Assembly (NCBI GenBank): GCA_951813285.1
Contig: OX638355.1
Location: 2,373,136-2,437,135, forward strand
Direction of reading: 5' to 3'
Source of the DNA: Terriglobia bacterium
GTDB taxonomy: Bacteria > Acidobacteriota > Terriglobia > Versatilivoradales > Versatilivoraceae
Length of the DNA: 64,000 nt
Below the pieces are notes generated by a model. That model ran no database searches and was not told the DNA's origin. It saw only the letters and a program-made list of their open reading frames with translations. Positions within the stretch are counted from its first letter, which is position 1. Each line of letters starts with the position of its first letter. A program made the position numbers and the translations under genes. Of this stretch, positions 3,905 through 63,950 are shown piece after piece.

Positions 3905-4005
3905 CCCGCCCCCGCCCTGTCGGGAACAAGAGCCATGTCGTGCTAAACCGGTTTTCTACTTATTGAACATGGATGCACAGGATAAACAGGATAAACATCA
4001 TTGCG
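3905..4005. repeat. Dispersed repeat family P ('...gggaacaagagccatgtcgtgctaaaccggttttctacttattgaacatggatgcacaggataaacaggataaaca'). Other copies at ~44040-44150 (inverted) and ~63345-63470.
   Basis: Direct comparison of the three loci shows >85% identity over ~100 bp. Confidence 0.7.
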
Positions 4006-4146: not shown

Positions 4147-5729
4147 GAGTCTGCGCCGCAGAAAACCCATCAGGGCTGAATGATACAATAAGGGGCACAG
4201 AGAGAACATTGGAGGTGGTGGATGGGGATAAGGTTTCGCCCGTATCAACCGAAGCAGCTGTTGATGTTGCCGCCGGACCTGGGGGAGTGGGTAGGGGAAG
4301 GGCACTTGGCCCATCAGGTGAGTGAGTTGGTGGATGGGCTGGAGTTGAGAGCATTTTACAAGCCCTATGAAGAGGACGGGAGGCGCAACTCGCCCTACGA
4401 GCCGCGGATGATGGTGAAGGTGTTGATTTACGCCTATGCGACGGGGGTATTCTCGTCGCGCAAGATCGCCAGGAAGCTGGAGGAAGACGTGGCGTTTCGG
4501 ATGCTGGCGGCGGGGAACTTTCCGCAGCATCGGACGCTGAGCGAGTTTCGCCGCCGACACTTGAAGGACTTCAAGAAGCTGTTCGTACAGGTGGTGAGCT
4601 TGGCACGGGAGATGGGGATGGTGGGATTGGGGCGTTTGGGGATCGATGGGACGAAAGTGCGGGCGAACGCGAGCCGGCGCAAGGCGATGAGCTATGGTCG
4701 GATGCGGGAGCGGGAGCGGCAACTGAGGGAAGAGATCCATGAGTTGTTGAAGAAGGCGCGGCGGGAGGACAGGGAGGAAGATGAGCGCTACGGGGAAGAC
4801 CGGCGTGGGGACGAGTTGCCGGAGGAGTTGCGTCGGCGGGAAGACCGGCTGGCGGCGATCGAGGCGGCCAAGCAACGGCTGGAGGCGGCGCAGCGAGAGG
4901 CCGACGACGAACGGGGCCGGAAACCGGGGCAAGAGCGGAACCCGAAAGGGGGAAGACCGTACAAGCGGGACTACGGGGAAGTGGAGGAGAAGGCGCAGAG
5001 CAACTTCACCGATCCGGAGAGCCGGATCATGAAGACCAGCACGGAGGGGTTCCAGCAGTGCTACAACGCGCAGGTGGCGGTGGACGGAGAGCAGCAGATC
5101 ATTGTGGCCACCGAGGTAACGGCGCAGGCGAGCGATCAGGGACAGATGATGGGGTTGTTGGAGGAGGTGGAGGAGACCTTCGAGGAGACACCCCAACAGG
5201 TGCTGGCGGATGCGGGCTACTGCAATGAGGGGGACTTGCAGGAACTGGAAGCGAGGGGAGTGGACGGTTACGTGGCGCTGGGGCGTGAGGGGAAGCGGGC
5301 GGTGGACGTCAATCCCGGCCGGTATCCGGCCAGGAGTCGTATGAGGAAGAAGCTGGCGAGTCTGGCCGGTCAGGTAGCCTATGCGCGGCGGAAGTGGATT
5401 GCCGAAGCCCCCCATGGGTGGATCAAGGAGGGGCTGGGATTTCGACGGTTCAGTCTGCGGGGCTTGCAGTCAGTGCAAGGGGAGTGGGACTTGGTGTGTC
5501 TGGCTCTCAACATCAAGAGGATGAGTGCGTTGATGGCGGCCTGAAGCAAGGGATTTCTACCTAATCCAGAGGACCAGGACGGTCCTCAACCTGCCATTCC
5601 GGGAGCCCGCAGGTGGCTTGAGACTCTATCGACGCCAAAGCGGCTCCCAAGCACTCCTTCGAACAGTTCTTCGACAAGATTCTCTCGCTCTCCCACCTTC
5701 CGAAATCGTCCTGCGGCGCAGACTCCTAG
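4147..5729 (+). mobile_element. Insertion sequence (~1.58 kb) with 19-bp perfect terminal inverted repeats 'CTAGGAGTCTGCGCCGCAG', carrying one IS5/IS1182-like DDE transposase gene.
   Basis: Left end at 4147-4166 'ggctaggagtctgcgccgcag'. Right end at 5710-5729 'ctgcggcgcagactcctag' is its exact reverse complement. A single transposase ORF lies between them. Confidence 0.75.
4222..5544 (+). CDS. IS5/IS1182-type (IS4 superfamily) DDE transposase, with an InsH-like N-terminal domain and a DDE C-terminal domain.
   Basis: 440-aa ORF with GGAGGTGG RBS. Motifs 'RKIARKLEEDVAFRMLA' and 'YNAQVAVDGEQQIIVATEV' are typical of IS1182/IS5 transposases. A lysine/arginine/glutamate-rich coiled region sits in the middle. 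Confidence 0.85.
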   Translation: MGIRFRPYQPKQLLMLPPDLGEWVGEGHLAHQVSELVDGLELRAFYKPYEEDGRRNSPYEPRMMVKVLIYAYATGVFSSRKIARKLEEDVAFRMLAAGNFPQHRTLSEFRRRHLKDFKKLFVQVVSLAREMGMVGLGRLGIDGTKVRANASRRKAMSYGRMRERERQLREEIHELLKKARREDREEDERYGEDRRGDELPEELRRREDRLAAIEAAKQRLEAAQREADDERGRKPGQERNPKGGRPYKRDYGEVEEKAQSNFTDPESRIMKTSTEGFQQCYNAQVAVDGEQQIIVATEVTAQASDQGQMMGLLEEVEETFEETPQQVLADAGYCNEGDLQELEARGVDGYVALGREGKRAVDVNPGRYPARSRMRKKLASLAGQVAYARRKWIAEAPHGWIKEGLGFRRFSLRGLQSVQGEWDLVCLALNIKRMSALMAA

Positions 5730-5854
5730 AGCAGCATATTCTCAGACAAGTCCGGCCCCCGCCCAGGTGTGCGGATCATACGAGAGTAAAACAGGGGAGT
5801 TCCTGACAGGCGTGGCTTTGGGGAGGCCGTGGGGTCTCGGAACGCGGTTTTTAA

Positions 5855-6175
5855 GTCGCCGCCTTCGCGGCTAGGGCAGTGCAGGGTCCACACGCCCCCG
5901 GGCTAACGCCCGGGGCTAAGTGCTGGCGCGGCTACGCCGCTTTATAAGGAAGGTCTGTAGGAGGGGTTTCCTCCCCAGACCTGGCTCAACCGCGGCTTCG
6001 CCGCTCTCTCCGAAGTCAAGACATTGCTCGGACGCGGGATGCTTATTTAAATGATTATCTCCCGTGCGTCAGCCCGGGGTTCCAGACAGCCGCCAAGGCG
6101 GCGGCAGCGCTTAGCCGTGGGCGTCAGCCCATGGAATAGGGCAAGTCCCCCCGAGCCGCGTAGGCGGCGACTACA
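5855..6175. repeat. Inverted pair of Q-family repeats (5855-5945 direct, 6090-6175 inverted), forming a MITE-like ~320-bp unit without coding capacity.
   Basis: Two Q copies in opposite orientation 145 bp apart. Confidence 0.55.
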
Positions 6176-12189: not shown

Positions 12190-15100
12190 ATGAAATCTAT
12201 GTTTGTCCAGGCTGTCGGGCTCTTCGAGGCCGCTCGGACCGAGGCTGACGTGCGTGACAAACTGAAGCTACTCGAGCAGGCAGAAGCCGTCTTCCAGAAA
12301 ATCATTGATCGAAATCCGTCCGCCGACCGTACGGTCACCGAGAGTGAGGCCGCCCGATCAGCTTATGTCTCTGTCATCTCGCAAGCGCTTGTTATTGCAC
12401 AGACGATCATTGACGAGGGAGTGTTCGAGAAGAACGAGAAAGGTGTTCAGGTGCTGGTGGGTATTGCCGAGGCACAAGCACGGTCGGGAGACGACATTGG
12501 TTCTCAAGAGAGTCTCTCCAATGCACTCGCCGTAGCGCGAACCATCAGCAATGGACCCCGATTGCTGGCGGACATTGCAGAAGCGCAAGCACGGTCTGGC
12601 GACCGTGTCAGTGCTCTGGAGAACTTCGCCCAAGCGGTTGTGTTGGCGCAGGCAAGAGGAGAGAAAAGGGAGGAATTTTCGAAGGAATCAGGCATCAACG
12701 GAAGTTATAGAGAGGACTACGTCAACCAACTGGCTTACATTGCCGAGGCGCAGGCACGGTTGGGGGATCGCACTTGTGCCCAAGAGAGTTTCTCGAAGGC
12801 ATTCGGGGTGTTGCAAACGATCACTTCGGAGTCGGAACGGATCAAGCTGCTGGCTCAAATCACCGCGGCACAAAACCGAGCGCTGCTGCACGTCGGTGAA
12901 GAGGACGGCAATGTCCAGGCGGTCGTGGCGGCGCGAACGATCACCAACGAATGGCGGAAGGCCGCAATACTGGGTCCAATGTGGTTGAATCCGTTTAGTC
13001 GAGGTTCACAAAATGACGACATCGAGGCTAACAAACAAATCCTTGCATTGATGGGCGTGGCCGCAAAGCAACGAGCGCAGACCAGGGACATAATGGAGGC
13101 GCTTGAGCGAATGAGTGCCGACAAATGGGAACGGGTCCGGGTGCTTGGGGCCATTGGCGAGGGACAAGCTCGGGCGGGGAACCACACTGCCGCCAAAGAG
13201 AGCTTTTCCCAAGCATATACAGTCGCACGAAGGCTCACGCATAGAGGGTGGTTATGGTTCCTGACGATCGGCGTCTTCCTGGCGAAGTTGATGATCATCA
13301 AGATACTCCGATACGAAGGGTGGGAGGCTCGAACGTTAGCGGAAATTTCTGAGGTTCAAGCCCAGTCACTGGTTCGCCTTGTCGGCGCAGAAGCCGAGTC
13401 CGGTGACATTCCACGTATGCCAGCTGTCGAGCAAACGATTAGACACGACAGAGGGTGGCGTGCCTGTGCGATAACTCGCAACCTGCAGAGTATGGTTGTT
13501 GGCTCCAAGGAGTTCTCCGACAGAGAGGGGAAAGCCGGGGCAATGGCCGATCTATCTTTAGCGCAGGTTCGGGCGGGGGATCTGTCGGGCGCACAAGAAA
13601 CCATTACCTATGCGCTGAAGCTGGCACGAAGGATTCGTAACGAAGGCAAGCGGGCCTGGGTTCTCGGCCGAATCGCCGAGGGACAGGCTCGGGCGGGGGA
13701 TCTGTCGGGAGCACGAGACACCACCCAGCAAGCGCTGGCCCTTGCGCAGCTGATAAGCATTCAGAAACTACGGGCGGGTATGTTCGTCGTTATCATCAAG
13801 GCGCGTATTGAGGCGGGGGATTTTGAGCAGGCGGTCGAGATTGCTTCAACAATCGATGATCAAGACATGCGGGATGGGGCGCTGGCGGAAGTCGCCAAGA
13901 CACAAGCCGAGACTGGGGATATCGCACAGGCACTTGAGGTCGCCCGTACGATTGACAGTGAAGATGTTCGGGATGGCGTGTTGGCTGAAATCGCCAAGGT
14001 ACAAGCCCAAGCCGGTGCCATTGCGCAGGCGTTTACACTTACGAAGACAATCACCGACAAGGAACAAAAGATCCGAGGTCTGTCGGCCGTTGCTGAGGAA
14101 TTGGCCAAGTTGGATAACACTACGGACCTAAGGGAACTCACCCAACCACTTGCCGCCAAGGAGCAGCAGGTTGGGAGGCTAGCCATTTTGGCAACTGGTC
14201 TCGCGGCTGCTTGGTCGACTTATGAGTGTGTCATCGACCAGGCGCTCACGCTAGTGCTTAAAGGGCTTGAGTCAAGTTTCCATGCAAAGGATTACGTCAC
14301 ATGCTTGGTCGATATCGCCAAGCTCCAGGCCCAAGCGGGCGACTTCACCGGAGCTCGGAAGAGTTTCTCCCAAGCATTCACTGCGGCGCAGGCTCTCCCC
14401 GAAGAGGACCACTATGAAGGATGGAGTCGCCGTGGACTGCTCTGCGACATCGCCAAAGAACAGGCCGGTGCCGGAAACGTAGAGCAGGCCCTGGCGCTGG
14501 TGCAGATGGTCACCCCTCAAGAGGAACGAGTCAGACCGATGATCGACATCGCCAAGGAGCAAGCCGAGGCAGGGGATCGCACAGGTGCTCAAGAGACTCT
14601 TTCGCAAGCGCAAGAGCTCGCCCAAACGATCACCCACCAACGGTACCGGGACTGGGTACTGGCCAATGTTGCCGAGACGCAAGCCGCGACAGGGGGCATT
14701 GCACAGTCGCAGACGGTCGGCCGAACGATCACCGACGAAAACAGTCGGAACCGCGTGCTGGCAAATGTCGCTGTAGCCCAAGCCAAGGCTCAAGTCCGGA
14801 AGGGTGACCGCGCCGGTGCCCGGGAGATCTTCTCGCAAGTGGTCGCGGAAGCGCAGAAGCTCCCAGAGATGGACGATTATGGGAAGAGTCGCTACGAGGT
14901 GCTCGGCGACATCGCCAAAGAACAGGCCCGCACCGGGGACGTAGAACAGGCCCTGGCAGTGGCGCAGACGATCACCATTGTAAACAGAAGGGACTGGGTA
15001 CTGGCCGACATTGCCGAGACGCAAGCCGCGACAGGGGGCATTGCGCAAGCGCAGACGGTCGGCCGAACGATCACCGACGAAAACAGTCGGAACCGCGTGC

Positions 15101-15735
15101 GGGTAAATGTCGCTGTAGCCCAAGCCAAGGCTCAAGCCCGGAAGGGTGACCGCGCCGGTGCCCAGGAGATCTTCTCGCAAGCGGTCGCGGAAGCGCAGAA
15201 GCTCCCAGAGTTGGATATTGGAGTAGGGGCTCGCAATGGTGCATTGGCCGACATTGCCAACGCGCAAGCCGAGACGGGGGGCGTTGAGCTGGCGGTCGAT
15301 GTCGCACAGACGATTACCGACAAGGAATTCGGCGAGTGCGTATTGGCTGACATTGCCAACGCGCAAGCTAGAACAGGGGGTATTGCACGAGCGCAGAAGG
15401 TTGCGCAGATGATCACCGACGAAGACAGTCGAAACTGGGTGCTGGCGAACATCGCTGTGGCCGAAGCTAAGGGATACGCACAGACAGGAGATCGCACCAG
15501 GGCTCGAAGGAGTGTCTCCCAAGCGGTCACACTGGCAGAGAGAGTCGCCGATAGGGTGGTCCAGGACTCACTACGGGCGAGAATCGCCCAGGCGCAAGCG
15601 GAAACAAGAGACTTTGCACATGCGTTCGCGCTCGCACAGATGATAGACAGCGATAGGACAAAATCCTTTGTGCTGGCGGCTATTGCCAAGGAACAACTAA
15701 TAAACTCAGGACTGCAAGTCAGGACTGCAAGTTAG
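12190..15735 (+). CDS. Giant (1181 aa) tandem-repeat protein (~36-40-aa alpha-helical repeats with the pattern '..R..VLA.IA.AQA..GD...A.E.FSQA...A..I..'), TPR/HEAT-like alpha-solenoid with no signal peptide.
   Basis: The repeat is visible throughout the translation. GGAG RBS lies 8 nt upstream. A near-identical internal duplication is present (14640-14840 versus 14995-15190). Confidence 0.7.
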   Translation: MKSMFVQAVGLFEAARTEADVRDKLKLLEQAEAVFQKIIDRNPSADRTVTESEAARSAYVSVISQALVIAQTIIDEGVFEKNEKGVQVLVGIAEAQARSGDDIGSQESLSNALAVARTISNGPRLLADIAEAQARSGDRVSALENFAQAVVLAQARGEKREEFSKESGINGSYREDYVNQLAYIAEAQARLGDRTCAQESFSKAFGVLQTITSESERIKLLAQITAAQNRALLHVGEEDGNVQAVVAARTITNEWRKAAILGPMWLNPFSRGSQNDDIEANKQILALMGVAAKQRAQTRDIMEALERMSADKWERVRVLGAIGEGQARAGNHTAAKESFSQAYTVARRLTHRGWLWFLTIGVFLAKLMIIKILRYEGWEARTLAEISEVQAQSLVRLVGAEAESGDIPRMPAVEQTIRHDRGWRACAITRNLQSMVVGSKEFSDREGKAGAMADLSLAQVRAGDLSGAQETITYALKLARRIRNEGKRAWVLGRIAEGQARAGDLSGARDTTQQALALAQLISIQKLRAGMFVVIIKARIEAGDFEQAVEIASTIDDQDMRDGALAEVAKTQAETGDIAQALEVARTIDSEDVRDGVLAEIAKVQAQAGAIAQAFTLTKTITDKEQKIRGLSAVAEELAKLDNTTDLRELTQPLAAKEQQVGRLAILATGLAAAWSTYECVIDQALTLVLKGLESSFHAKDYVTCLVDIAKLQAQAGDFTGARKSFSQAFTAAQALPEEDHYEGWSRRGLLCDIAKEQAGAGNVEQALALVQMVTPQEERVRPMIDIAKEQAEAGDRTGAQETLSQAQELAQTITHQRYRDWVLANVAETQAATGGIAQSQTVGRTITDENSRNRVLANVAVAQAKAQVRKGDRAGAREIFSQVVAEAQKLPEMDDYGKSRYEVLGDIAKEQARTGDVEQALAVAQTITIVNRRDWVLADIAETQAATGGIAQAQTVGRTITDENSRNRVRVNVAVAQAKAQARKGDRAGAQEIFSQAVAEAQKLPELDIGVGARNGALADIANAQAETGGVELAVDVAQTITDKEFGECVLADIANAQARTGGIARAQKVAQMITDEDSRNWVLANIAVAEAKGYAQTGDRTRARRSVSQAVTLAERVADRVVQDSLRARIAQAQAETRDFAHAFALAQMIDSDRTKSFVLAAIAKEQLINSGLQVRTAS

Positions 15736-21889: not shown

Positions 21890-22140
21890 GCAGGTGTTTG
21901 GACGCACCCCTGGTTCTTCGACGGGCGACTCATTCAGGGCAATACCGGGGTTGTTTCAGGCAAGCCGGGCCCCCGCCCCCCACGACGGGGCGGATCATTC
22001 GAGGGTAAAACAATCAGAAATCGAAAATCCTTTCGCGACCTTGGAATCCCGTCGCGGTTTACCTCAACGCCTTAGTGTCCCTTCGTCGTTCTTCGTGTCC
22101 CTTCGTGGATTCCTCTTTTTCTTTTGTCTTTATTCGTTTG
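21890..22140 (-). repeat. Partial (leader-only, ~170-250 bp) copy of the R-element family: 'gaaacaaacga(a)aaagacaaaag...ggccactaagg...cactctcgtatgatccgccc'.
   Basis: Reverse complement aligns with 43497-43660 and 50292-50470. Confidence 0.6.
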
Positions 22141-22173
22141 TTTCAGGCAGGCAGGCAAGCAAGCAGGCAGGCG

Positions 22174-37662: not shown

Positions 37663-38050
37663 AATGAAAATCCTCCCGCGTCGGTTTTCGAGATTCCTAG
37701 GCGTTTCCGGTTTCCAAAAGCCCTGATCCTTATCGCGGCAATCGGAAGTCTTCACGTAGTTTGGCTACATCGATACTTTCCCAGCACTTCTGTGTCAAGA
37801 AGTCAACAAACACACTTACGCGGTAAAGCTGGCTAGGCAATGGATCACGATCAGTCACTATGTACCCCACAAAATTACAGGGACGCACAAGGCGTCCCTG
37901 GGGTCATAATAAACCGGACACTCGTTTTGCCCTTTTCGGGAGATGGTCCGGCGGATCTTATAAGCGCAATTAAGTCATAAGGGACGTTACTTGGCAACTT
38001 GTTTTTGGCTTCCTGCTCAGCGACCCTTCAGTTGCCACAAGAAGGGCCAT

Positions 38051-38350
38051 GAGATAAGAGCGAGCCTTTTGCAAAATTCGGAGTCGGGCGATCTTTATCC
38101 AGATCGAGGGTTGTTCCTTCCGAGTCCGTCAAGGAACAGGTGTCACTGAACCCTTTTGCCGTCTGAAGCTCAATGGCCACAAAAGGCACAAAAAACACAA
38201 AAGGAACCATCCGATCGGCAAGACTCGAAACAAGAAACAAGAGACTCGTTTTGTGACTCTTGTGCTTTTTGTGGTGAATGCCGGAGTCCGCAGCACACCA
38301 CCTTTTGCCGCTTCAATGTCATTCCCGATTGCGAATTTTGCAAAGGGATC
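38051..38350. mobile_element. ~300-bp MITE bounded by the same TIRs as the IS at 8959-10445 (GAGCCTTTTGCAAAATTCG...CGAATTTTGCAAAGGGATC), with no transposase.
   Basis: TIRs at 38051-38069 and 38332-38350. A further solo TIR with ~200 bp of similarity is at 50880-51085. Confidence 0.55.
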
Positions 38351-38432
38351 GAGCTCTAGTTAATTACCCCTTTGACTGTTGCGGAGGTAAAGCAGTGACT
38401 ATTTCTGAGAAAGAAGAACAGCTATTCAAGAA

Positions 38433-39413: not shown

Positions 39414-39935
39414 TCCGCGATTTCTCTTACGGGACGCCGCGTCTGCCCCCCTCCGGATCGACTGCGGGCTGCGCCCTTGTCCGACTCCCCCTCAAGGGGG
39501 GAGTGATACTTGAGGCCTGCATATGACGCTCGCCGACTTCCCTCAAGGGGGGAGTGATTAGGATTGCGGGGTGAATAAAGCTTCAGACACCCCCAATAGG
39601 GGAATCCCACCACCACTCGCCAATCGACAATCAGAAATCAGCAATCAACAATTCTTTGTTTTGACCTTGGACCGATCAACCTTGCCTGATCGCCTGGCGG
39701 GGGAAACCTTGGCCGCTTCGGAGTGGTGTTCGGTGTGCTCGGCCAGGGTTGACGAGGCGGCAGGCGTCTTCTTTCCTTCCTTGGCAATCGCCGCGAATTC
39801 CTGCGACAATTTCTTCAGCCTGTCGATCTGGCTCTTGGTGAGTGTGCCGGCCATGGTGTGAGCGGGTGGAAATGCAATGCGCCGGTCGGCCTTCGCCTGG
39901 GCTTGGCAAGGGCCGGCACTTCGGTCTGAGGCGGG

Positions 39936-40775
39936 CTATGCCGGATCTTCGAGCTCAACCGCCTGAAACAGTCCTTCGGTCACCCAGCCGCGGAACCAGG
40001 AGAAGAGCTGCACCTCTCCAACCGGCTGGCGCCCCCCTTTCAAAACGCTGCTCAATGCGTCTCCAAGCGGAACGCCGCTGACCAGAGCATGCAGAAGCCT
40101 GTAGGCGGGACGGGACAGATCCAGCCAGCGGAGCGCGTATTGACGCCTGTAAACCACCGCCCAGTGGTTCTTGCGCCGGGTACCGGGGCAGGTCTTGCCC
40201 TGGCGCACCGCCTCCAGGTAGGCTCCCACCGGGTAGCGAAGCACCTCCACCGAAAGGGCCGCGATGGGTTTGAGACGGGCTGTCTCCCAGCTTTCCGGGG
40301 GTACCGCGGCGATGGCTTCGGGGGTGAGGACCGGTGATTCCTCAGCGTCGAACAGTCGACTCATCAACAGCTCAAAGCGAGCCAGCTCGTGGAGGAAGTC
40401 CTGCCGCACTATCCCGGGACTGCTCCGGATATAGTCGGGGAGACGATCTCCCAGGCGGTTCAAGGTATAGCTCCGGGAGGGATAGCGGTCGACATAGCCC
40501 CTGACCAGCTCGGAGAAGCGCTTCCGACCCAGAAAATGAAGCAGCCCGGGAAAGTCGGCCTCCAAGGCTTCCTGCAAGCGGGCCAGGTACATGCCGCGGT
40601 AGATGCCGATTCGGTCGAAGGAATCCAGCGTGCGGGATGGCCTTATCAGGCGTGGAAACTGGCTCGCCGGCACTAGCTTGCGGGCTTTCGGGGAAGCCAC
40701 CGCCTCGCGATCGGAGCCCGGATGCAGAATGACCGCCTGCATCCATTGCTGGGTGTTGCCCAGATCAGGTGCCAT
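39936..40775 (-). CDS. DUF2063 protein (MbnC/BufC-like RiPP partner protein).
   Basis: N-terminal 'QQWMQAVILHPG...' and a start that overlaps the stop of the DUF692 gene. Confidence 0.8.
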   Translation of the reverse strand: MAPDLGNTQQWMQAVILHPGSDREAVASPKARKLVPASQFPRLIRPSRTLDSFDRIGIYRGMYLARLQEALEADFPGLLHFLGRKRFSELVRGYVDRYPSRSYTLNRLGDRLPDYIRSSPGIVRQDFLHELARFELLMSRLFDAEESPVLTPEAIAAVPPESWETARLKPIAALSVEVLRYPVGAYLEAVRQGKTCPGTRRKNHWAVVYRRQYALRWLDLSRPAYRLLHALVSGVPLGDALSSVLKGGRQPVGEVQLFSWFRGWVTEGLFQAVELEDPA

Positions 40776-41625
40776 AGGCTCTCTTGAGGTCCGGCTCGGG
40801 AAGGCCGCGGTGCCGGCGGGCTTTCAAGGCTTCGGCGTGAACCACCTCAAAGCTGGGAATGTTCTCGTCCCACTCCAGCAGGGTTGCCACCCCGCCGGTT
40901 CTCCGGCAGGAGCGTCGATAGAGGGACCAGACTTCGTCGATGACGTAATCGCTGTGGGTGTCCAGAATGTGGGTTCCCTTGTGGGTGTGTCCGGCCAGGT
41001 GATACTGAACGACACGGTCGGCCGGGACGCGGTCGATGAAGGCGTCCGGGTCCAGGCCGTGGTTGAAGCAGCTGACGTAGACGTTGTTCACGTCCAGCAG
41101 TATCCCGCAGTCGGCCTCCTGGGCCAGGGTGGACAGAAAGTCGACTTCGCTCCAGGTCGAGGTCCCGAACTCCAGGTAGGTCGAGGGATTCTCCAGCACC
41201 AGGGGACGCTCCAGGATTTCGGAAACCGCCTTCACCCGTTCGATGGTGTAGCGCAGGGATTCGTCGGTGTAGGGCATCGGCAGCAGGTCGTGGACGTTGA
41301 TGCCGCTCACGCCGGTCCAGCAGAGGTGGTCGGAGACCCAGTGGGCCCTGGTACGGTCGGCCAAAGCCTTCAGTTTCTTCAGATAGTCCAGGTTCAAGGG
41401 GTCGGTGCTTCCCACCGACATGGAAACGCCGTGGAGCACGACCGGGTAGCGTTCCGCCACCTGGTCCAGCACGTAGAGCGGCCGTCCTCCCGTATCCATG
41501 TAGTTCTCCGACAGGACTTCGAACCAGTCGATGGGGGGATGGTTGGCGAGAATATAGCTGTAGTGGACGGTGCGGAGACCGATTCCAAACCCCAGGTCGG
41601 GCAAATTCCATCGGTTCCTGCCCAT
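40765..41625 (-). CDS. DUF692 (UPF0276, MbnB/BufB-like) TIM-barrel di-iron enzyme.
   Basis: 'LGFGIGLRTVHYSYIL...DWFEVLSENYM...PVVLHGVSMSVGS...AHWVSDHLCWTG'. AGGAGG RBS before ATG at 41625. Confidence 0.85.
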   Translation of the reverse strand: MGRNRWNLPDLGFGIGLRTVHYSYILANHPPIDWFEVLSENYMDTGGRPLYVLDQVAERYPVVLHGVSMSVGSTDPLNLDYLKKLKALADRTRAHWVSDHLCWTGVSGINVHDLLPMPYTDESLRYTIERVKAVSEILERPLVLENPSTYLEFGTSTWSEVDFLSTLAQEADCGILLDVNNVYVSCFNHGLDPDAFIDRVPADRVVQYHLAGHTHKGTHILDTHSDYVIDEVWSLYRRSCRRTGGVATLLEWDENIPSFEVVHAEALKARRHRGLPEPDLKRAYGT

Positions 41626-41744
41626 AAGGGACCTCCTGTTCCGACGCACGGACTCGCCCGGCATCCCGCTTCCCGGCCGCGGAGTCGTGGGCAGCACCCG
41701 GCGGTCGGAAAAGTCGGGAGACCGGTTGGTCCTGGAGAGTCAGA

Positions 41745-42119
41745 CTATTTCTTCTTTTCGGTCCCGTGAACGGGAACGGCGCAGCCGCCCTTGCCCTTGC
41801 AGGAATTCTTGCCGGCGCAGCCGTTGTCGCCACTGCCGCAGCCGCCCTGGCCCTTGCACTCGTTCTGACCCTTGCAGGCGTGCTTGGCCACGGTGGCGCA
41901 GCCACCCTTGCCCTTGCAGGAATTCTTGCCGGCGCAGCCATTGTCGCCGCTGGCGCAGCCACCCTGGCCCTTGCACTGGTTACGGCCCTTGCAGACGTGC
42001 TTGGACTTCTTGTCTTCATCGGCCAACAACAGCGAATCCGTTTGGCTGACCGTTTTGGAACCCGCCACCATGCCGGCCACCGCGGCTCCCATGACCTGAG
42101 TGAATTTTCTTCGATCCAT
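41745..42119 (-). CDS. Secreted 12-Cys RiPP precursor peptide (bufferin BUF_6/12Cys-like), made of two near-identical 6-Cys modules 'CKGxNxCKGQGGCxSGDNGCAGKNSCKGKGGCA'.
   Basis: Tat/Sec-type signal 'MDRRKFTQVMGAAVAGMVAGS'. AAGGAGG RBS 8 nt upstream. 12 Cys in 75 aa. A ~108-bp tandem DNA duplication is present. Confidence 0.75.
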   Translation of the reverse strand: MDRRKFTQVMGAAVAGMVAGSKTVSQTDSLLLADEDKKSKHVCKGRNQCKGQGGCASGDNGCAGKNSCKGKGGCATVAKHACKGQNECKGQGGCGSGDNGCAGKNSCKGKGGCAVPVHGTEKKK

Positions 42120-42446
42120 TGAGGAATCCTCCTTGAGGATGGGTGCGAACGTCATCTCCATAGCGATCCGACGAGCCATGCCCGCCGGTCAACTGGTACT
42201 TTCGAGAGAGCCAGAATATAGCCCAACCTCCCGGAAAAATCAAAGCTCGCTCTTCGCCGATAGAGCGGGGATGCCCAACTGCCGTGCCTGTCTTGCTGGA
42301 CCGGCGGCATGGACAACTGCAGGCGTTCGCCAGTTGGTTCGAGGCCTCTGCGTTTGATCCCCGGGTGCCCGGTTACTGTGGTATAGTCCCCGGCGTTTGA
42401 GGCAAGGTTTCCTGTGTCGGGGTCACCACCCGGGAGGTCAGAGGTC

Positions 42447-43496: not shown

Positions 43497-44205
43497 AACA
43501 AACGAAAAAAGACAAAAGAAAAAAGAGCTATCCACGAAGGGCCACTAAGAACGACGAAGGGCCACTAAGGCGTTGAGGTTAACCGCGACGGGATGCCAAG
43601 GTCGCGAAGGGATTTTCGATTTCTGATTGTTTCACTCTCGTATGATCCGCCCGGTACGGCGGGGGCTGGGCTCGCGGACAAACCGGAGTTTTCCAGAAGG
43701 CGACCGTCGGCTTTCAGAGAATTCGCCCGCCGGATGCCCTCCATCGCACCATCGGGACGACCCACCCGGGAGCGCGGGCGTCTCGCCCGCACAGGACTTG
43801 GCACCATTGTAACGATCCCCACAATGGCCGGTTTGGTGCACTGTGCGAGGAAGTGGCCCTGCATCGCAGGCTGTTTGCACCAATAAGGTTGCGGGCGGGA
43901 CGCCCGCGCTCCCGGGGGGGCATTCTCCCATGACGCCGTGATACCCACGTCACAATATTGCAGAAGCACCCGGGCGCCGCTCGTCATTGAAGGAGCTCCA
44001 TCCCTAATCGTCCCCATTCGTGTTCATTGGTGGTTCGTCTTCATTGCCAAAACGAAAACGGCTGGCTGTTTATCCTGTCTATCCTGTACATCCATGTTCA
44101 ATAAGTAGAAAACCGGTTTTGCACGACAGGGCCCTTGTTCCCGACAGGGCATGAAGATGCGTTGTTTCACTCTCGTATGATCCGCCCGGCAGGGTGGGGG
44201 TTGGA
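43497..44205 (+). repeat. Full copy of a composite non-coding element. Order: leader L (43497-43625), 37-bp repeat A (43625-43660), R body with a long hairpin, inverted P repeat (44040-44150), second A (44165-44205).
   Basis: About 95% identical to 50292-50740 and to the reverse complement of 63480-63840. 'gtttcactctcgtatgatccgcccgg.a.gg.ggggg' occurs at both ends. Confidence 0.7.
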
Positions 44206-49056: not shown

Positions 49057-49518
49057 ATGGGCCCCATCGGCGTACCCGAGTTGATCATCATTTTTGTGGT
49101 GGCGTTGCTGGTATTCGGGCCACGCAAGCTGCCTGAGTTGGGGAAATCTCTCGGTCGGGGACTCTCCGAGTTCCGACGCGCCTCCAACGAACTCAGAAAT
49201 ACCCTGGAGGAAGAGGTTCGCGCGGCTGAATACGAGCCTCCCCCTCCCCCTCCCCCGCCCAAGCTGGAAAAGCCGGCGGAAGCTGCAACTGCCGACCCTG
49301 CACCGGCCGTCGATACCGGGGAGGAAGCGGCGGCACCGACCTCTTCCGAAGCGGAAGGCGGTGATGTTGCGGCGGAAGCTGTCTCCGCCGAAGAGAAATC
49401 TGAAGCACCCTCCCAACCTTCAGAAGGCGACGCCGGCCAGGAGCCGGAGGCTGCGACAGCCTCCTCGGTCGGCTCAAGCTCGGAGCCCAAGCCTGAACCC
49501 AAGCCGGATGGACACTGA
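49057..49518 (+). CDS. tatA: Sec-independent translocase TatA/TatB-family protein with a long proline/alanine/glutamate-rich tail.
   Basis: 'MGPIGVPELIIIFVVALLVFGPRKLPELGKSLG'. Confidence 0.8.
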   Translation: MGPIGVPELIIIFVVALLVFGPRKLPELGKSLGRGLSEFRRASNELRNTLEEEVRAAEYEPPPPPPPPKLEKPAEAATADPAPAVDTGEEAAAPTSSEAEGGDVAAEAVSAEEKSEAPSQPSEGDAGQEPEAATASSVGSSSEPKPEPKPDGH

Positions 49519-50278
49519 CCCAAGGGACGACAACGAGCTTGCGGCGACCGGCAAGATGTCCTTTTTGGATCATCTGGACGAGTTGCGCCGGCGCATCATC
49601 GTCGCCGTCGTTGTGGTGGGCATCAGTTTTGTTGCCTGCTGGATCTTTCACGAGAAAATCTTCGAGTTCCTGTCGGTTCCGATCACCCAGCACTTGGGGG
49701 ACCGCAAGCTCACCTATCTGCGCCCCACCGAGCCCTTCATGATCTACATGAAGGCTTCTTTCTACGCGGGGATCTTTCTGGCCTCCCCGCTTGTCCTGTG
49801 GCAGGTCTGGCTGTTCATTGCCCCCGGCCTCTATTCCCGGGAAAAGCGATACGCCATACCCTTCCTGCTTTCCTCCAGCATTCTCTTTATCCTGGGGGGG
49901 GTCTTCGCCTACTCGGTCGGCCTTCCCATGACCTTGAATTTTCTCACCGATTTCGGCCAGAACTTTGAGGAGATGGTGACCGCAACCTTCTACTTCGACT
50001 TCGCTCTGGTCATCATCCTGGGATGCGCCATCATTTTCGAAATTCCGATCGTCATTTTCTTCCTCTCCATCATGGGCATCACCAATGCCCGATTCCTGTT
50101 GAGGAATCTCCGCTACGCCGTCCTCATTATTTTCATTACAGCAGCCATCATCACGCCAACGCCGGACATCCCAACCTTGATGGTCTTCGCCGCGCCCATG
50201 CTCTTGCTGTACCTGGTAGGCGTACTGGTAGCCTGGATCTTCGGCAAAAAGCGCCTGAGGGGCGAGGATTCCGACTGA
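49508..50278 (+). CDS. tatC: Sec-independent translocase TatC.
   Basis: 'MSFLDHLDELRRRII...PLVLWQVWLFIAPGLYSREKR'. Start overlaps the tatA stop. Confidence 0.9.
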   Translation: MDTDPRDDNELAATGKMSFLDHLDELRRRIIVAVVVVGISFVACWIFHEKIFEFLSVPITQHLGDRKLTYLRPTEPFMIYMKASFYAGIFLASPLVLWQVWLFIAPGLYSREKRYAIPFLLSSSILFILGGVFAYSVGLPMTLNFLTDFGQNFEEMVTATFYFDFALVIILGCAIIFEIPIVIFFLSIMGITNARFLLRNLRYAVLIIFITAAIITPTPDIPTLMVFAAPMLLLYLVGVLVAWIFGKKRLRGEDSD

Positions 50279-50291
50279 GGTTCCTCCACCC

Positions 50292-50870
50292 CTTACTTGA
50301 AACAAACGAAAAAAGACAAAAGAAAAAAAGAAAAAAGAGGAATCCACGAAGGGCCACTAAGGACGACGAAGGGCCACTAAGGCGTTGAGGTGAACCGCGA
50401 CGGGATACCACGGTCGCGAAGGGATGATCGATTTCCGATAGTTTCACTCTCGTATGATCCGCCCGGTACGGCGGGGGCTGGGCTCGCGGACAAACCGGAG
50501 TTTTCCAGAAGGCGACCGTCGGCTTTCAGAGAATTCGCCCGCCGGATGCCCTCCATCGCACCATTGGGACGACCCACCCGGGAGCGCGGGCGTCTCGCCC
50601 GCACAGGACTTGGCACCATTGTAACGATCCCCACAATGGCCGGTTTGGTGTACTGTGCGAGGAAGTGGCCCTGCATCGCAGGCTGTTTGCACCAATAAGG
50701 TTGCGGGCGGGACGCCCGCGCTCCCGGGTGGCATTCTCCCATGACGCCGTGACACCAACCTCACAATATTGCAGAAGCACCCGGGCGCCGCTCGTCATTG
50801 AAGGAGCTCCATCCCTATTCGCCCCCATTCGTGTTCATTGGTGGTTCGTCTTCATTGAGAAACGACCAAG
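50292..50870 (+). repeat. Second copy of the L+A+R composite element (lacks the P arm), inserted immediately after the tatC stop.
   Basis: About 95% identity to 43497-44040. Confidence 0.7.
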
Positions 50871-63282: not shown

Positions 63283-63950
63283 AGGGTGAAACAGGGGTGT
63301 TCCTGACAAGTTCCGCCCCCGCCGTACCGGGCGGATCATACGAGAGTGGAACTAACGAATCTTCATGTCCTATCGGGAATAAGAGCCATGTCTTGCTAAA
63401 CCGGTTTTCTACTAATTGAACATGGATGTACAGGATAGACAGGATAAACAGCCAGCCGTTTTGGTTTTGGAAATGAAGACGAACCACCAATGAACACGAA
63501 CGGGCCCGAATAGGGATGGAGTTCCTTCAATGACGAGCGGCGCCCAGGTGCTTCTGCAATATTGTGACGTGGGTGTCACGGCGTCAGGGGAGAATGCCCC
63601 CCCGGGAGCGCGGGCGTCCCGCCCGCAACCTTATTGGTGCAAACAGCCTGCGATGCAGGGCCACTTCCTCGCACAGTGCACCAGACCCGCCATTGTGGGG
63701 ATCGTTACAATGGTGCCAAGTCGTGTGCGGGCGAGACGCCCGCGCTCCCGGGTGGGTCGTCCCGATGGTGCGATGGAGGGCATCCGGCGGGCGAATTCTC
63801 TGAAAGCCGACGGTCGCCTTCTGGAAAACTCCCGTTTGTCCGCGAGCCCAGCCCCACAGCCGCCAAGGCGGCGGTAGCACTTAGCCGTGGGCGTCAGCCG
63901 GGCGAAGCCATTGGATCGGGTTGGCTTAAGAGTTGAGCCGCGTAGGCGGC
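63283..63950 (-). repeat. Inverted copy of the composite element, in the order A', P, R body (63480-63840) and an inverted Q repeat (63855-63950). The L leader is missing.
   Basis: Reverse complement of 63480-63840 aligns with 43660-44040. 63365-63465 is a P copy. 63855-63950 is a Q copy. Confidence 0.7.

Follow-up and report, generated by a model that had tools for sequence, protein, structure and literature searches.

Results

We describe a three-gene cluster in a 64,000-nucleotide stretch of a Terriglobia genome (contig OX638355.1; hereafter the window) that is real and that, judging by its sequence, very probably encodes a copper-binding peptide rich in cysteine, modified by enzymes and secreted, namely a bufferin of the Buf2 type. 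We are highly confident in reading it as a bufA2-bufB-bufC operon in an Acidobacteriota (Terriglobia/Bryobacteraceae-like) host; its other class name is the 'Cys-Lys' captophorin group. The sequences establish which genes are present, the families they belong to, that the catalytic ligands are intact, that synteny is conserved and that the precursor is under purifying selection. An earlier note on this DNA had proposed three co-directional genes at 39936-42119 forming a bufferin-kind RiPP cluster; all three are present there, on the minus strand (which the note left unstated), in the order bufA2 (42119..41745), bufB (41625..40765) and bufC (40775..39936), and the expected parts were all found: a Cys-rich precursor with a probable signal peptide, the MNIO enzyme and its DUF2063 partner. 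The features are as follows.

42215..42243, minus strand: putative sigma-70-like promoter, TTGATT-17-TATATT, from a pattern scan, about 96 nt 5' of bufA2
42127..42134, minus strand: Shine-Dalgarno sequence AAGGAGGA, strong, 7 nt 5' of the bufA2 ATG, conserved in 6 relatives
41745..42119, minus strand: bufA2, 124-aa bufferin-2 precursor with 12 Cys
42021..42119, minus strand: probable signal peptide, residues 1-33, with putative cleavage after LLLA
41892..41999, minus strand: core module 1, residues 41-76, HVCKGRNQCKGQGGCASGDNGCAGKNSCKGKGGCAT
41775..41882, minus strand: core module 2, residues 80-115, HACKGQNECKGQGGCGSGDNGCAGKNSCKGKGGCAV, the second 36-aa module with 6 Cys
41778..42004, no strand: DNA tandem duplication with two copies of 110 nt, 91% identical, at a period of 117
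40765..41625, minus strand: bufB, 286-aa MNIO (DUF692) bufferin maturase, with Shine-Dalgarno AGGAGG at 41632-41637
39936..40775, minus strand: bufC, 279-aa DUF2063 partner of the PME1 type
39645..39854, minus strand: conserved 69-aa ORF about 80 nt 3' of bufC, a possible lineage-specific fourth gene of uncertain membership

The 124-aa, 286-aa and 279-aa gene calls recur on near-identical public contigs. The A-B-C order is retained in most of 80 related loci, drawn from Acidobacteriota, Planctomycetota, Myxococcota, Verrucomicrobiota and other phyla. The Cys-rich ORF, whose absence from relatives' loci the earlier note would have counted against its reading, lies directly 5' of bufB in most of the 80. 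No second copy of bufA, bufB or bufC occurs elsewhere in the window, and Rfam and tRNA searches gave no match within or adjoining the cluster. A horizontally acquired island was considered and rejected: the cluster does not differ from its neighbours in GC content (0.61-0.64), and it is flanked by housekeeping genes.

A duplicated, twelve-cysteine precursor

The precursor ORF encodes 12 Cys in two near-identical 36-aa modules of 6 Cys each, as the earlier note had claimed. Both modules have the spacing C-x5-C-x5-C-x6-C-x5-C-x5-C, and the precursor has N-x-C-K-G motifs, with Lys after Cys. Each of the 12 cysteines is either invariant or conserved to at least 90%, and the search recovered 6947 homologues at E<=1e-3. 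The precursor matches the NCBIfam equivalog NF050166 (Cu_RiPP_BufA2) at 63.7 bits, a score that barely exceeds the curated cut-off of 60 and sums over repeated stretches; the same profile is matched by 79 of 79 aligned homologues. The profiles that the earlier note had named fared unevenly: besides the BufA2 family, PF05114 (359 bits, bufB product) and PF09836 (71 bits against a gathering score of 27.2, bufC product) were matched, but DUF2282 (PF10048) gave no match to the precursor at E<=0.1. Comparison with a relative (locus L007) gave 18 synonymous versus 7 non-synonymous codon differences, which indicates purifying selection. An AlphaFold2 model of the precursor, built from a 79-sequence alignment, reached a pLDDT of only 47.7, so that neither a usable fold nor a disulfide pairing has model support.

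The two modules share 86% protein and 88% DNA identity, which bears out the earlier proposal that the 12 cysteines arose by internal duplication. The DNA repeat of about 108 bp that it reported is indeed visible, as direct-repeat copies at 41778-41887 and 41895-42004, but the implied recency does not hold. We reject a recent duplication because the between-module DNA identity of 0.88 lies within the range of 0.63-0.90 in 40 other loci, and because position-specific module ends (...CAT in module 1, ...CAVP in module 2) are common across classes. On these sequences the duplication is old and family-wide. Lineage-specific changes are common to both modules, and module number varies among close relatives (1, 2 or 3), with apparent single-module alleles at L036, which lacks exactly one 117-nt unit, and at P0014. 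The two-module, 12-Cys precursor is the commonest form among acidobacterial relatives. A 12-Cys tandem substrate is not itself new: Buf2 was first named BUF_6/12Cys, and duplicated 6-Cys domains are reported to make up about 10% of its members (PMC12452194).

The modifying enzymes and a downstream gene

BufB matches the MNIO_BufB model NF050167 at 356 bits (curated cut-off 310). Using the MbnB Fe-ligand list of PMC9060507, we located equivalents of all nine positions in BufB (H65, H100, E145, D178, N181, H209, D222, H224 and E251), and these are invariant in 80 of 80 related loci. The DUF692 enzyme thus has the metal ligands on which the earlier note had staked its reading.

The bufC ATG at 40775 lies within bufB, whose stop is at 40765-40767, giving an 11-nt overlap between the two genes, which the earlier note had described as translationally coupled. 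A sequence search of solved structures with BufC returned chance matches only, and a fold search was used instead. With an AlphaFold model of pLDDT 90.7, Foldseek matched BufC to TglI (8hci_A, E 2e-6, TM 0.64) and NGO1945 (3dee, TM 0.71), and its C-terminal part weakly to the RRE of TbiB1 (probability 0.69). BufC is thus a DUF2063/TglI/NGO1945-type protein and not the MbnC-like partner that had been supposed.

The 69-aa ORF always comes after bufC, even where the further flank differs. Its relatives number only 61, with identities of 64% or more and an invariant TEHHSEAA motif, and it has no match in Pfam or NCBIfam.

A probable, Tat-like signal peptide

The precursor N-terminus has a positively charged, twin-arginine-type n-region (D-R-R-K-F-T-Q), a 16-residue uncharged, Gly/Ala-rich h-region, Lys22 in the c-region and an A-x-A-like site. 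A typical Tat substrate has a motif of the S/T-R-R-x-F-L-K type, then an h-region of weak hydrophobicity and a basic residue in the c-region. Among the 79 aligned homologues, conservation of R3, R4 and F6 is 90% or higher, R-R-x-F is found in 108 of 121 homologues, and the conserved motif, R-R-x-F-x-K, is Tat-like. The window also contains the tatA/B and tatC genes. The Tat profiles TIGR01409 and PF10518 did not match the precursor, its N-terminus alone had no match at E<=10 in Pfam or NCBIfam, and Tat-signal models match 6-7 of the 79 relatives, weakly. The signal peptide is probably of the Tat type.

Expression signals and neighbourhood

The putative promoter is the sole conserved block in the otherwise diverged upstream regions of 6 loci. 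An ECF/SigF-type promoter was set aside, as the only conserved element is sigma-70-like. RNA folding of the 119-nt bufA2-bufB spacer gave no attenuator better than shuffled sequences (z = -0.48).

We found no DoxX, sigma or anti-sigma genes within about 10 kb, no SigF/NrsF or other copper regulator nearby, unlike in Caulobacter, and no other metal-resistance genes within 10 kb. The earlier note had taken the lack of DoxX and regulator genes to mark a minimal variant. The genes are absent, but this is the normal Buf2 layout: Buf2 clusters lack sigma/anti-sigma genes, the Caulobacter buf2ABC prototype lacks DoxX (PMC11626156, PMC12452194), and DoxX follows bufC in only 4 of 65 related loci.

Discussion

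The chemistry, the choice of modified cysteines, the bound metal and the physiological role proposed here are carried over from the characterised Caulobacter Buf1 and Buf2 systems. By this analogy, the 124-aa precursor would be synthesised in the cytoplasm, where the DUF2063/RRE-like BufC may recruit the multi-iron oxidase BufB to it. In each 6-Cys module, four-electron oxidation by BufB would convert the central cysteines to 5-thiooxazoles (-4 Da each), with the first and last cysteines left unmodified to pair as a disulfide. The modified protein would then leave the cytoplasm through its N-terminal signal peptide, probably by the Tat route here, the signal would be cleaved, and the mature peptide of about 91 aa would sequester excess Cu(I)/Cu(II) in the periplasm. 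With two modules, its capacity could be about twice that of a 6-Cys bufferin. The most likely product would carry about eight 5-thiooxazoles and two disulfides, with an expected total mass shift of about -36 Da (8 x -4.03 Da plus 2 x -2.02 Da). Experiments on Buf2 found four -4 Da Cys modifications and a disulfide, copper induction and copper protection, and both BufB and BufC are required for bufferin function in Caulobacter (PMC11626156); MNIO-PME1 pairs, BufB2 relatives included, broadly install 5-thiooxazole (PMC13097082). The periplasmic copper or metal chelator that the earlier note had anticipated is, by analogy, supported as the likely product.

Of the competing explanations, the best placed, though unlikely, is that the peptide is a modified bufferin with a target other than copper, such as another thiophilic metal (Hg, Au, Cd or Zn) or oxidative or sulfur stress, in a soil or aquatic acidobacterium. 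The lack of a copper regulator or copper-resistance gene nearby and a promoter of the sigma-70-like rather than the ECF-dependent type are consistent with this, as are literature accounts of MerC-Buf2 fusions and of gold or oxidative-stress induction in other species. However, all bufferins and captophorins characterised to date bind copper and give protection from it.

Methanobactin-type chemistry, in which BufB would make oxazolone-thioamide pairs and the product would be a secreted copper-acquisition chalkophore, is highly improbable. BufB and MbnB do belong to one Pfam family (PF05114) with the same Fe ligands, both would turn Cys into a copper-binding heterocycle, and oxazolone-thioamide and 5-thiooxazole are isomers that are difficult to distinguish. 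MbnA is a short leader-core peptide that yields a secreted chalkophore for copper uptake, with oxazolone-thioamide chemistry, whereas the precursor here has a probable signal peptide, and its core is about 91 aa long. The MbnB equivalog TIGR04159 scores BufB at only 54.5 bits against a cut-off of 325, BufC is of the DUF2063/PME1 type with no MbnC chain among its fold matches, and neither an MbnT-type TonB receptor nor other mbn genes, those for transport included, lie nearby. MNIO-PME1 products, including oxazolin, have now been reassigned to 5-thiooxazole (PMC13097082), and this is the chemistry to be expected of BufB-type enzymes (PMC11626156, PMC13097082), which argues against the methanobactin-like option, with oxazolone and thioamide groups, raised in the earlier note.

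It is equally improbable that the product is an unmodified Cys/Gly/Lys-rich protein, metallothionein-like in the periplasm or disulfide-rich, with BufB and BufC inactive on it or serving another substrate: soft metals could bind twelve thiols directly, the precursor model yields no structure, and many bufferin precursor genes in published surveys are unlinked to an MNIO gene (PMC12452194), but here the precursor gene adjoins bufB in most of 80 loci across phyla, the catalytic ligands are intact, and the Caulobacter system needs both enzymes.

Among known systems, the cluster shares with Bufferin 2 of Caulobacter vibrioides (buf2ABC, CCNA_02999-03001) the precursor-MNIO-DUF2063 order, the lack of DoxX and sigma/anti-sigma genes, a precursor with a probable signal peptide and six conserved Cys in each domain, and scores above the curated BufA2 and BufB cut-offs. 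It differs in having two modules rather than one, an Acidobacteriota rather than a Pseudomonadota host, a putative sigma-70-like rather than a SigF-dependent promoter, an additional conserved 69-aa gene downstream in its lineage, and an R-R-x-F-x-K signal where Sec signals are described in the Buf2 papers, of the Sec lipoprotein kind in about 16% of Buf2. As the 12-Cys duplicated form and the DoxX-free layout are already published (Leprevost et al. 2024, PMC11626156; PMC12452194, 2025), we regard the cluster as a new but ordinary addition to a known family.

The 'Cys-Lys' group of captophorins (ACS Chem Biol 2026, PMC13097082) likewise combines an MNIO with a DUF2063+RRE partner, a precursor with Cys followed by Lys, and predicted 5-thiooxazole. 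However, the members characterised in that work (fontiphorin, oxazolin and gonophorin) carry EGKCG 'Lys-Cys' 5-mer repeats, whereas the precursor here is C-K-G and not K-C-G, and enzyme specificity differs because FonBC did not process C-K substrates (PMC13097082). Membership of the oxazolin/HvfABC or fontiphorin groups is contradicted by the absence of EGKCG repeats and by the equivalog scores: 253 bits for BufB against HvfB (cut-off 360), and 46 bits for BufC against HvfC (cut-off 142), the only NCBIfam partner model that matches it. Bufferin 1 (buf1ABCD) agrees with the cluster in its enzyme pair, its export logic and its role in buffering copper, but its precursor is a DUF2282 protein with 4 Cys, and its clusters usually include DoxX and often SigF/NrsF. 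In the TglHI system (3-thiaglutamate/pearlin, PDB 8HCI), TglI is the best structural match of BufC and TglH the second-best solved relative of BufB, but the substrate is different and so is the reaction, which excises the beta-carbon of a C-terminal Cys, and sequence identity is only 11-14%.

The Tat-like signal, the variation in module number and the 69-aa gene are minor points absent from the bufferin literature that we searched. Together they suggest a tentative reading, to which we give distinctly less than even chances: that the precursors of this large, mostly acidobacterial and planctomycete branch of Buf2 are Tat rather than Sec substrates, exported only once BufB and BufC have completed their modification in the cytoplasm, that module number (1, 2 or 3) is tuned by unequal recombination of 117-nt repeats kept alike by concerted evolution, and that the 69-aa TEHHSEAA protein acts with the system.

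The value of the locus lies mainly in annotation, as the three genes, for which source databases give the labels 'DUF692', 'DNA-binding domain' and 'hypothetical', can now be named bufA2, bufB and bufC. Additionally, bufferins usually have two modules in Acidobacteriota, which published, Pseudomonadota-centred work barely covers, and this form would lend itself to testing whether metal capacity grows in step with module number. If the R-R motif directs Tat export, it would provide a useful mechanistic detail on how the export machinery receives a RiPP already modified in the cytoplasm. Tat export of the precursor, if true, would explain how modification and export are coordinated, a question raised in the published work.

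Gene content and family assignment

We file the cluster as a bufA2BC (Buf2 bufferin) cluster. It was correctly spotted in the earlier note but is an ordinary member of a family well described in recent work, and it is not methanobactin-like as that note had it. Three co-directional genes occupy exactly the predicted span, 39936-42119 on the minus strand, and were confirmed in every detail.

Features of the cluster and its surroundings
42243..42215, upstream of bufA2: sigma-70-like element TTGATT-17-TATATT, candidate promoter
42119..41745, minus strand: bufA2, 124 aa; AAGGAGGA 7 nt 5' of the ATG
41625..40765, minus strand: bufB, 286 aa; ATG start behind AGGAGG
40775..39936, minus strand: bufC, 279 aa; ATG lies within the end of bufB (11-nt overlap)
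39854..39645, minus strand: 69-aa ORF 3' of bufC, after a gap of about 80 nt; invariant TEHHSEAA motif
About 49057-49518, plus strand: tatA/B, 7 kb from the cluster
About 49500-50278, plus strand: tatC, 7 kb from the cluster

The 286-aa form of BufB follows gene calls on near-identical public contigs (a mechanical ORF list reaches a GTG at 41697), and sequences identical to BufB and BufC also occur on public contigs. As claimed, the BufA2 precursor carries 12 Cys in two near-identical 36-aa modules (residues 41-76 and 80-115; 86% protein identity), each spaced C-x5-C-x5-C-x6-C-x5-C-x5-C, and the duplication, put at ~108 bp, is still visible in the DNA as two 110-nt copies with 91% identity and a period of 117.

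Profile searches upheld the DUF692 and DUF2063 assignments, with the enzyme matching PF05114 (MbnB_TglH_ChrH) at 359 bits and the partner PF09836 at 71 bits (Pfam). NCBIfam equivalog models identify the precursor as NF050166, "BufA2 family periplasmic bufferin-type metallophore" (63.7 bits, cut-off 60), and the enzyme as NF050167, "MNIO family bufferin maturase" (356 bits, cut-off 310). The MbnB model scores 54.5 bits against a cut-off of 325, which removes the methanobactin likeness; HvfB (253/360), ApyH (108/400) and ChrH (43/600) identities were likewise rejected, all far under their cut-offs. The metal ligands on which the earlier reading of the DUF692 protein depended are intact: the MbnB Fe ligands His54, His90, Glu133, Asp163, Asn166, His192, Asp208, His210 and Glu239 (PMC9060507) correspond, in HMMER alignments to solved MbnB chains, to H65, H100, E145, D178, N181, H209, D222, H224 and E251 of BufB, all nine present and invariant in 80/80 related loci. 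Sequence search detected no solved relative of BufC. Its confident AlphaFold model (pLDDT 90.7) resembles TglI (8hci_A), partner of the MNIO TglH (E 2e-6, TM 0.64), and the DUF2063 protein NGO1945 (3dee; TM 0.71), and its C-terminal part weakly matches the TbiB1 RiPP-recognition element.

Distribution and published relatives

The window is Acidobacteriota DNA, and the closest genome records are Terriglobia, Bryobacteraceae and unclassified Acidobacteria MAGs. Two Acido-Lenti-1 RNA motifs (RF01687; 4083-4128 and 5896-5941, plus strand), which exceed the gathering score at 44.6 and 49 bits, are consistent with acidobacterial origin. Among 8000 candidates scored, 6947 were precursor homologues at E<=1e-3; the best 120 of these hold exactly 12 Cys in 66 cases and 13-15 in most others. 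Relatives do carry the Cys-rich ORF, as the earlier reading required, with A-B-C order retained in most of 80 genome loci located by way of BufB. The two-module precursor is the commonest form among the Acidobacteriota of this set, and Myxococcota and Planctomycetota include one-module, lipoprotein-type and 8-10-Cys variants. DoxX is the next gene after bufC in only 4/65 loci, with unrelated genes elsewhere; thus, an ABC cluster without DoxX is the norm.

Both the 12-Cys tandem substrate and the layout that the note had called a "minimal variant" are already published family properties. A Cys-rich ORF-DUF692-DUF2063 arrangement was noted in 2021 in Antarctic soil metagenomes (PMC8692599), and Leprevost et al. 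2024 defined bufferins and characterised the buf2ABC operon of C. vibrioides, comprising precursor, MNIO and DUF2063 genes explicitly without bufD/DoxX (PMC11626156), a gene content shared with the window. According to a 2025 survey, 90% of Buf2 precursors have 6 Cys and the remainder have 12, and an AlphaFold model in that survey shows "duplicated 6-Cys-containing domains" (PMC12452194). A 2026 grouping unites all MNIO + DUF2063/RRE ("PME1") systems as "captophorins" (PMC13097082), and N-x-C-K-G motifs place the window precursor, together with BufA2, in the Cys-Lys captophorin group.

Age and copy number of the modules

DNA identity between modules is 0.88 in the window and 0.63-0.90 in 40 other loci. 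Module-specific ends (...GGCAT/S in module 1, ...GGCAVP in module 2) are common to different classes; therefore, the duplication is older than these lineages. Additionally, lineage-specific substitutions appear in both modules at once in related loci L029 (T-A-D/N-H-D-C), L045 and L048 (C-H-G-K-N), L034 (C-K-S-K-N) and L021 (C-G-G-K-N). This sequence pattern argues against a fresh duplication and speaks for concerted evolution or parallel selection. Module copy number is labile among close relatives: L036, the closest species-level relative (BufB 97% identical; 5624-5881), and precursor homologue P0014 are each shorter by exactly one 117-nt unit, in frame, and three-module precursors occur in P0004 (18 Cys) and L077 (21 Cys). 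The source of this variation is either unequal recombination or, in the case of L036, a short-read MAG, assembly collapse.

Regulation and neighbourhood

The regions upstream of bufA2 in six relatives have diverged except for the sigma-70-like element, their sole conserved block; in two of these relatives a Zorya-like island has been inserted just upstream. Consistent with the note, no regulator adjoins the cluster: out to 10 kb, genes for an ECF sigma factor, NrsF, a CueR/CsoR-type regulator or metal resistance are all absent. Sigma/anti-sigma genes belong to Buf1 clusters and are absent from Buf2 clusters (PMC12452194). Folding found no significant RNA structure in the bufA2-bufB spacer. The neighbours are mtnA, a thioesterase, ygfZ/GCV_T, gatB, hemH, a CMD-family gene and holA, and cluster GC content equals that of the flanks. 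The 69-aa ORF lies 3' of bufC in every member of the window's lineage, even where an integrase replaces hemH as the next flank; it has only 61 relatives, each at least 64% identical, no family match and no signal peptide, and may be a lineage-specific accessory gene.

Other features were observed nearby. L007 (1850-9477) and L008 (1809-9367), loci with precursors 94% identical to the window's, hold a four-gene Zorya-like defence island (ZorA-like, OmpA/ZorB-like, EH_Signature, SNF2+Mrr) between mtnA and bufA2, with the promoter block kept; the window has no such island at about 42.2-42.4 kb. In both loci a GSDH gene also separates hemH from the CMD gene, on the far side of which lies a ferritin gene. 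In the window, the stretch between the CMD-family gene and hemH (37760-38430) has few ORFs and a GC content of about 0.50 vs 0.62. A dispersed intergenic repeat of ~500-670 nt, a candidate MITE-like element or sRNA, occurs at 43497-44168 (+), 50309-50862 (+) and 63349-63855 (-) with 93-97% identity, and partially at 21966-22144 and 3914-3997 (81-86%); one copy lies just past mtnA, 1.4 kb from the cluster, and spurious ORFs at the copies look alike because the repeat is the same. Tandem repeats at 13883-15557, spaced by 342 nt and 99 nt and with 226-nt units that are up to 95% identical, are presumably part of a repeat-protein gene.

Export and proposed function

The BufA2 N-terminus reads M-D-R-R-K-F-T-Q-VMGAAVAGMVAG-S-K and is similar to the S/T-R-R-x-F-L-K consensus of Tat signals. 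In an alignment of 79 homologues, conservation of R3, R4 and F6 is 90% or higher; R-R-x-F occurs in 108/121 precursor homologues, Lys stands two positions past the motif in 82/112 sequences bearing R-R-x-[FLIVM], and ~15 uncharged, moderately hydrophobic residues follow. Weighing against Tat, signal profile models for this route gave no match to the window precursor and weak matches in only 6-7/79 relatives, and sister clades with the same core have K-K or lipoprotein-type signals instead. Bufferin papers describe Sec signals, and Tat is nowhere mentioned in the bufferin literature searched. The tatA/B and tatC genes indicate that the host has a Tat system; their closeness to bufA2 is probably coincidental. 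We regard Tat export of the precursor as likely but unproven.

In Caulobacter Buf2, the two outermost Cys escape modification and probably pair in a disulfide, the central four show -4.03 Da shifts, and both buf operons are copper-induced and protective against copper (PMC11626156). The window holds the gene-level parts of such a mechanism, and by analogy with this system and related captophorins we infer its chemistry, Cys choice, metal and phenotype. Cytoplasmic BufB and BufC would convert four central Cys per module, eight in total, to 5-thiooxazoles, and the outer Cys of each module would form a disulfide. The modified protein would be exported, probably via Tat, and cleaved near Ala33, leaving a periplasmic peptide of ~91 aa that would buffer copper. 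The residual interest of this cluster lies in its conserved twin-arginine motif, its module copy-number variation and its small downstream gene.
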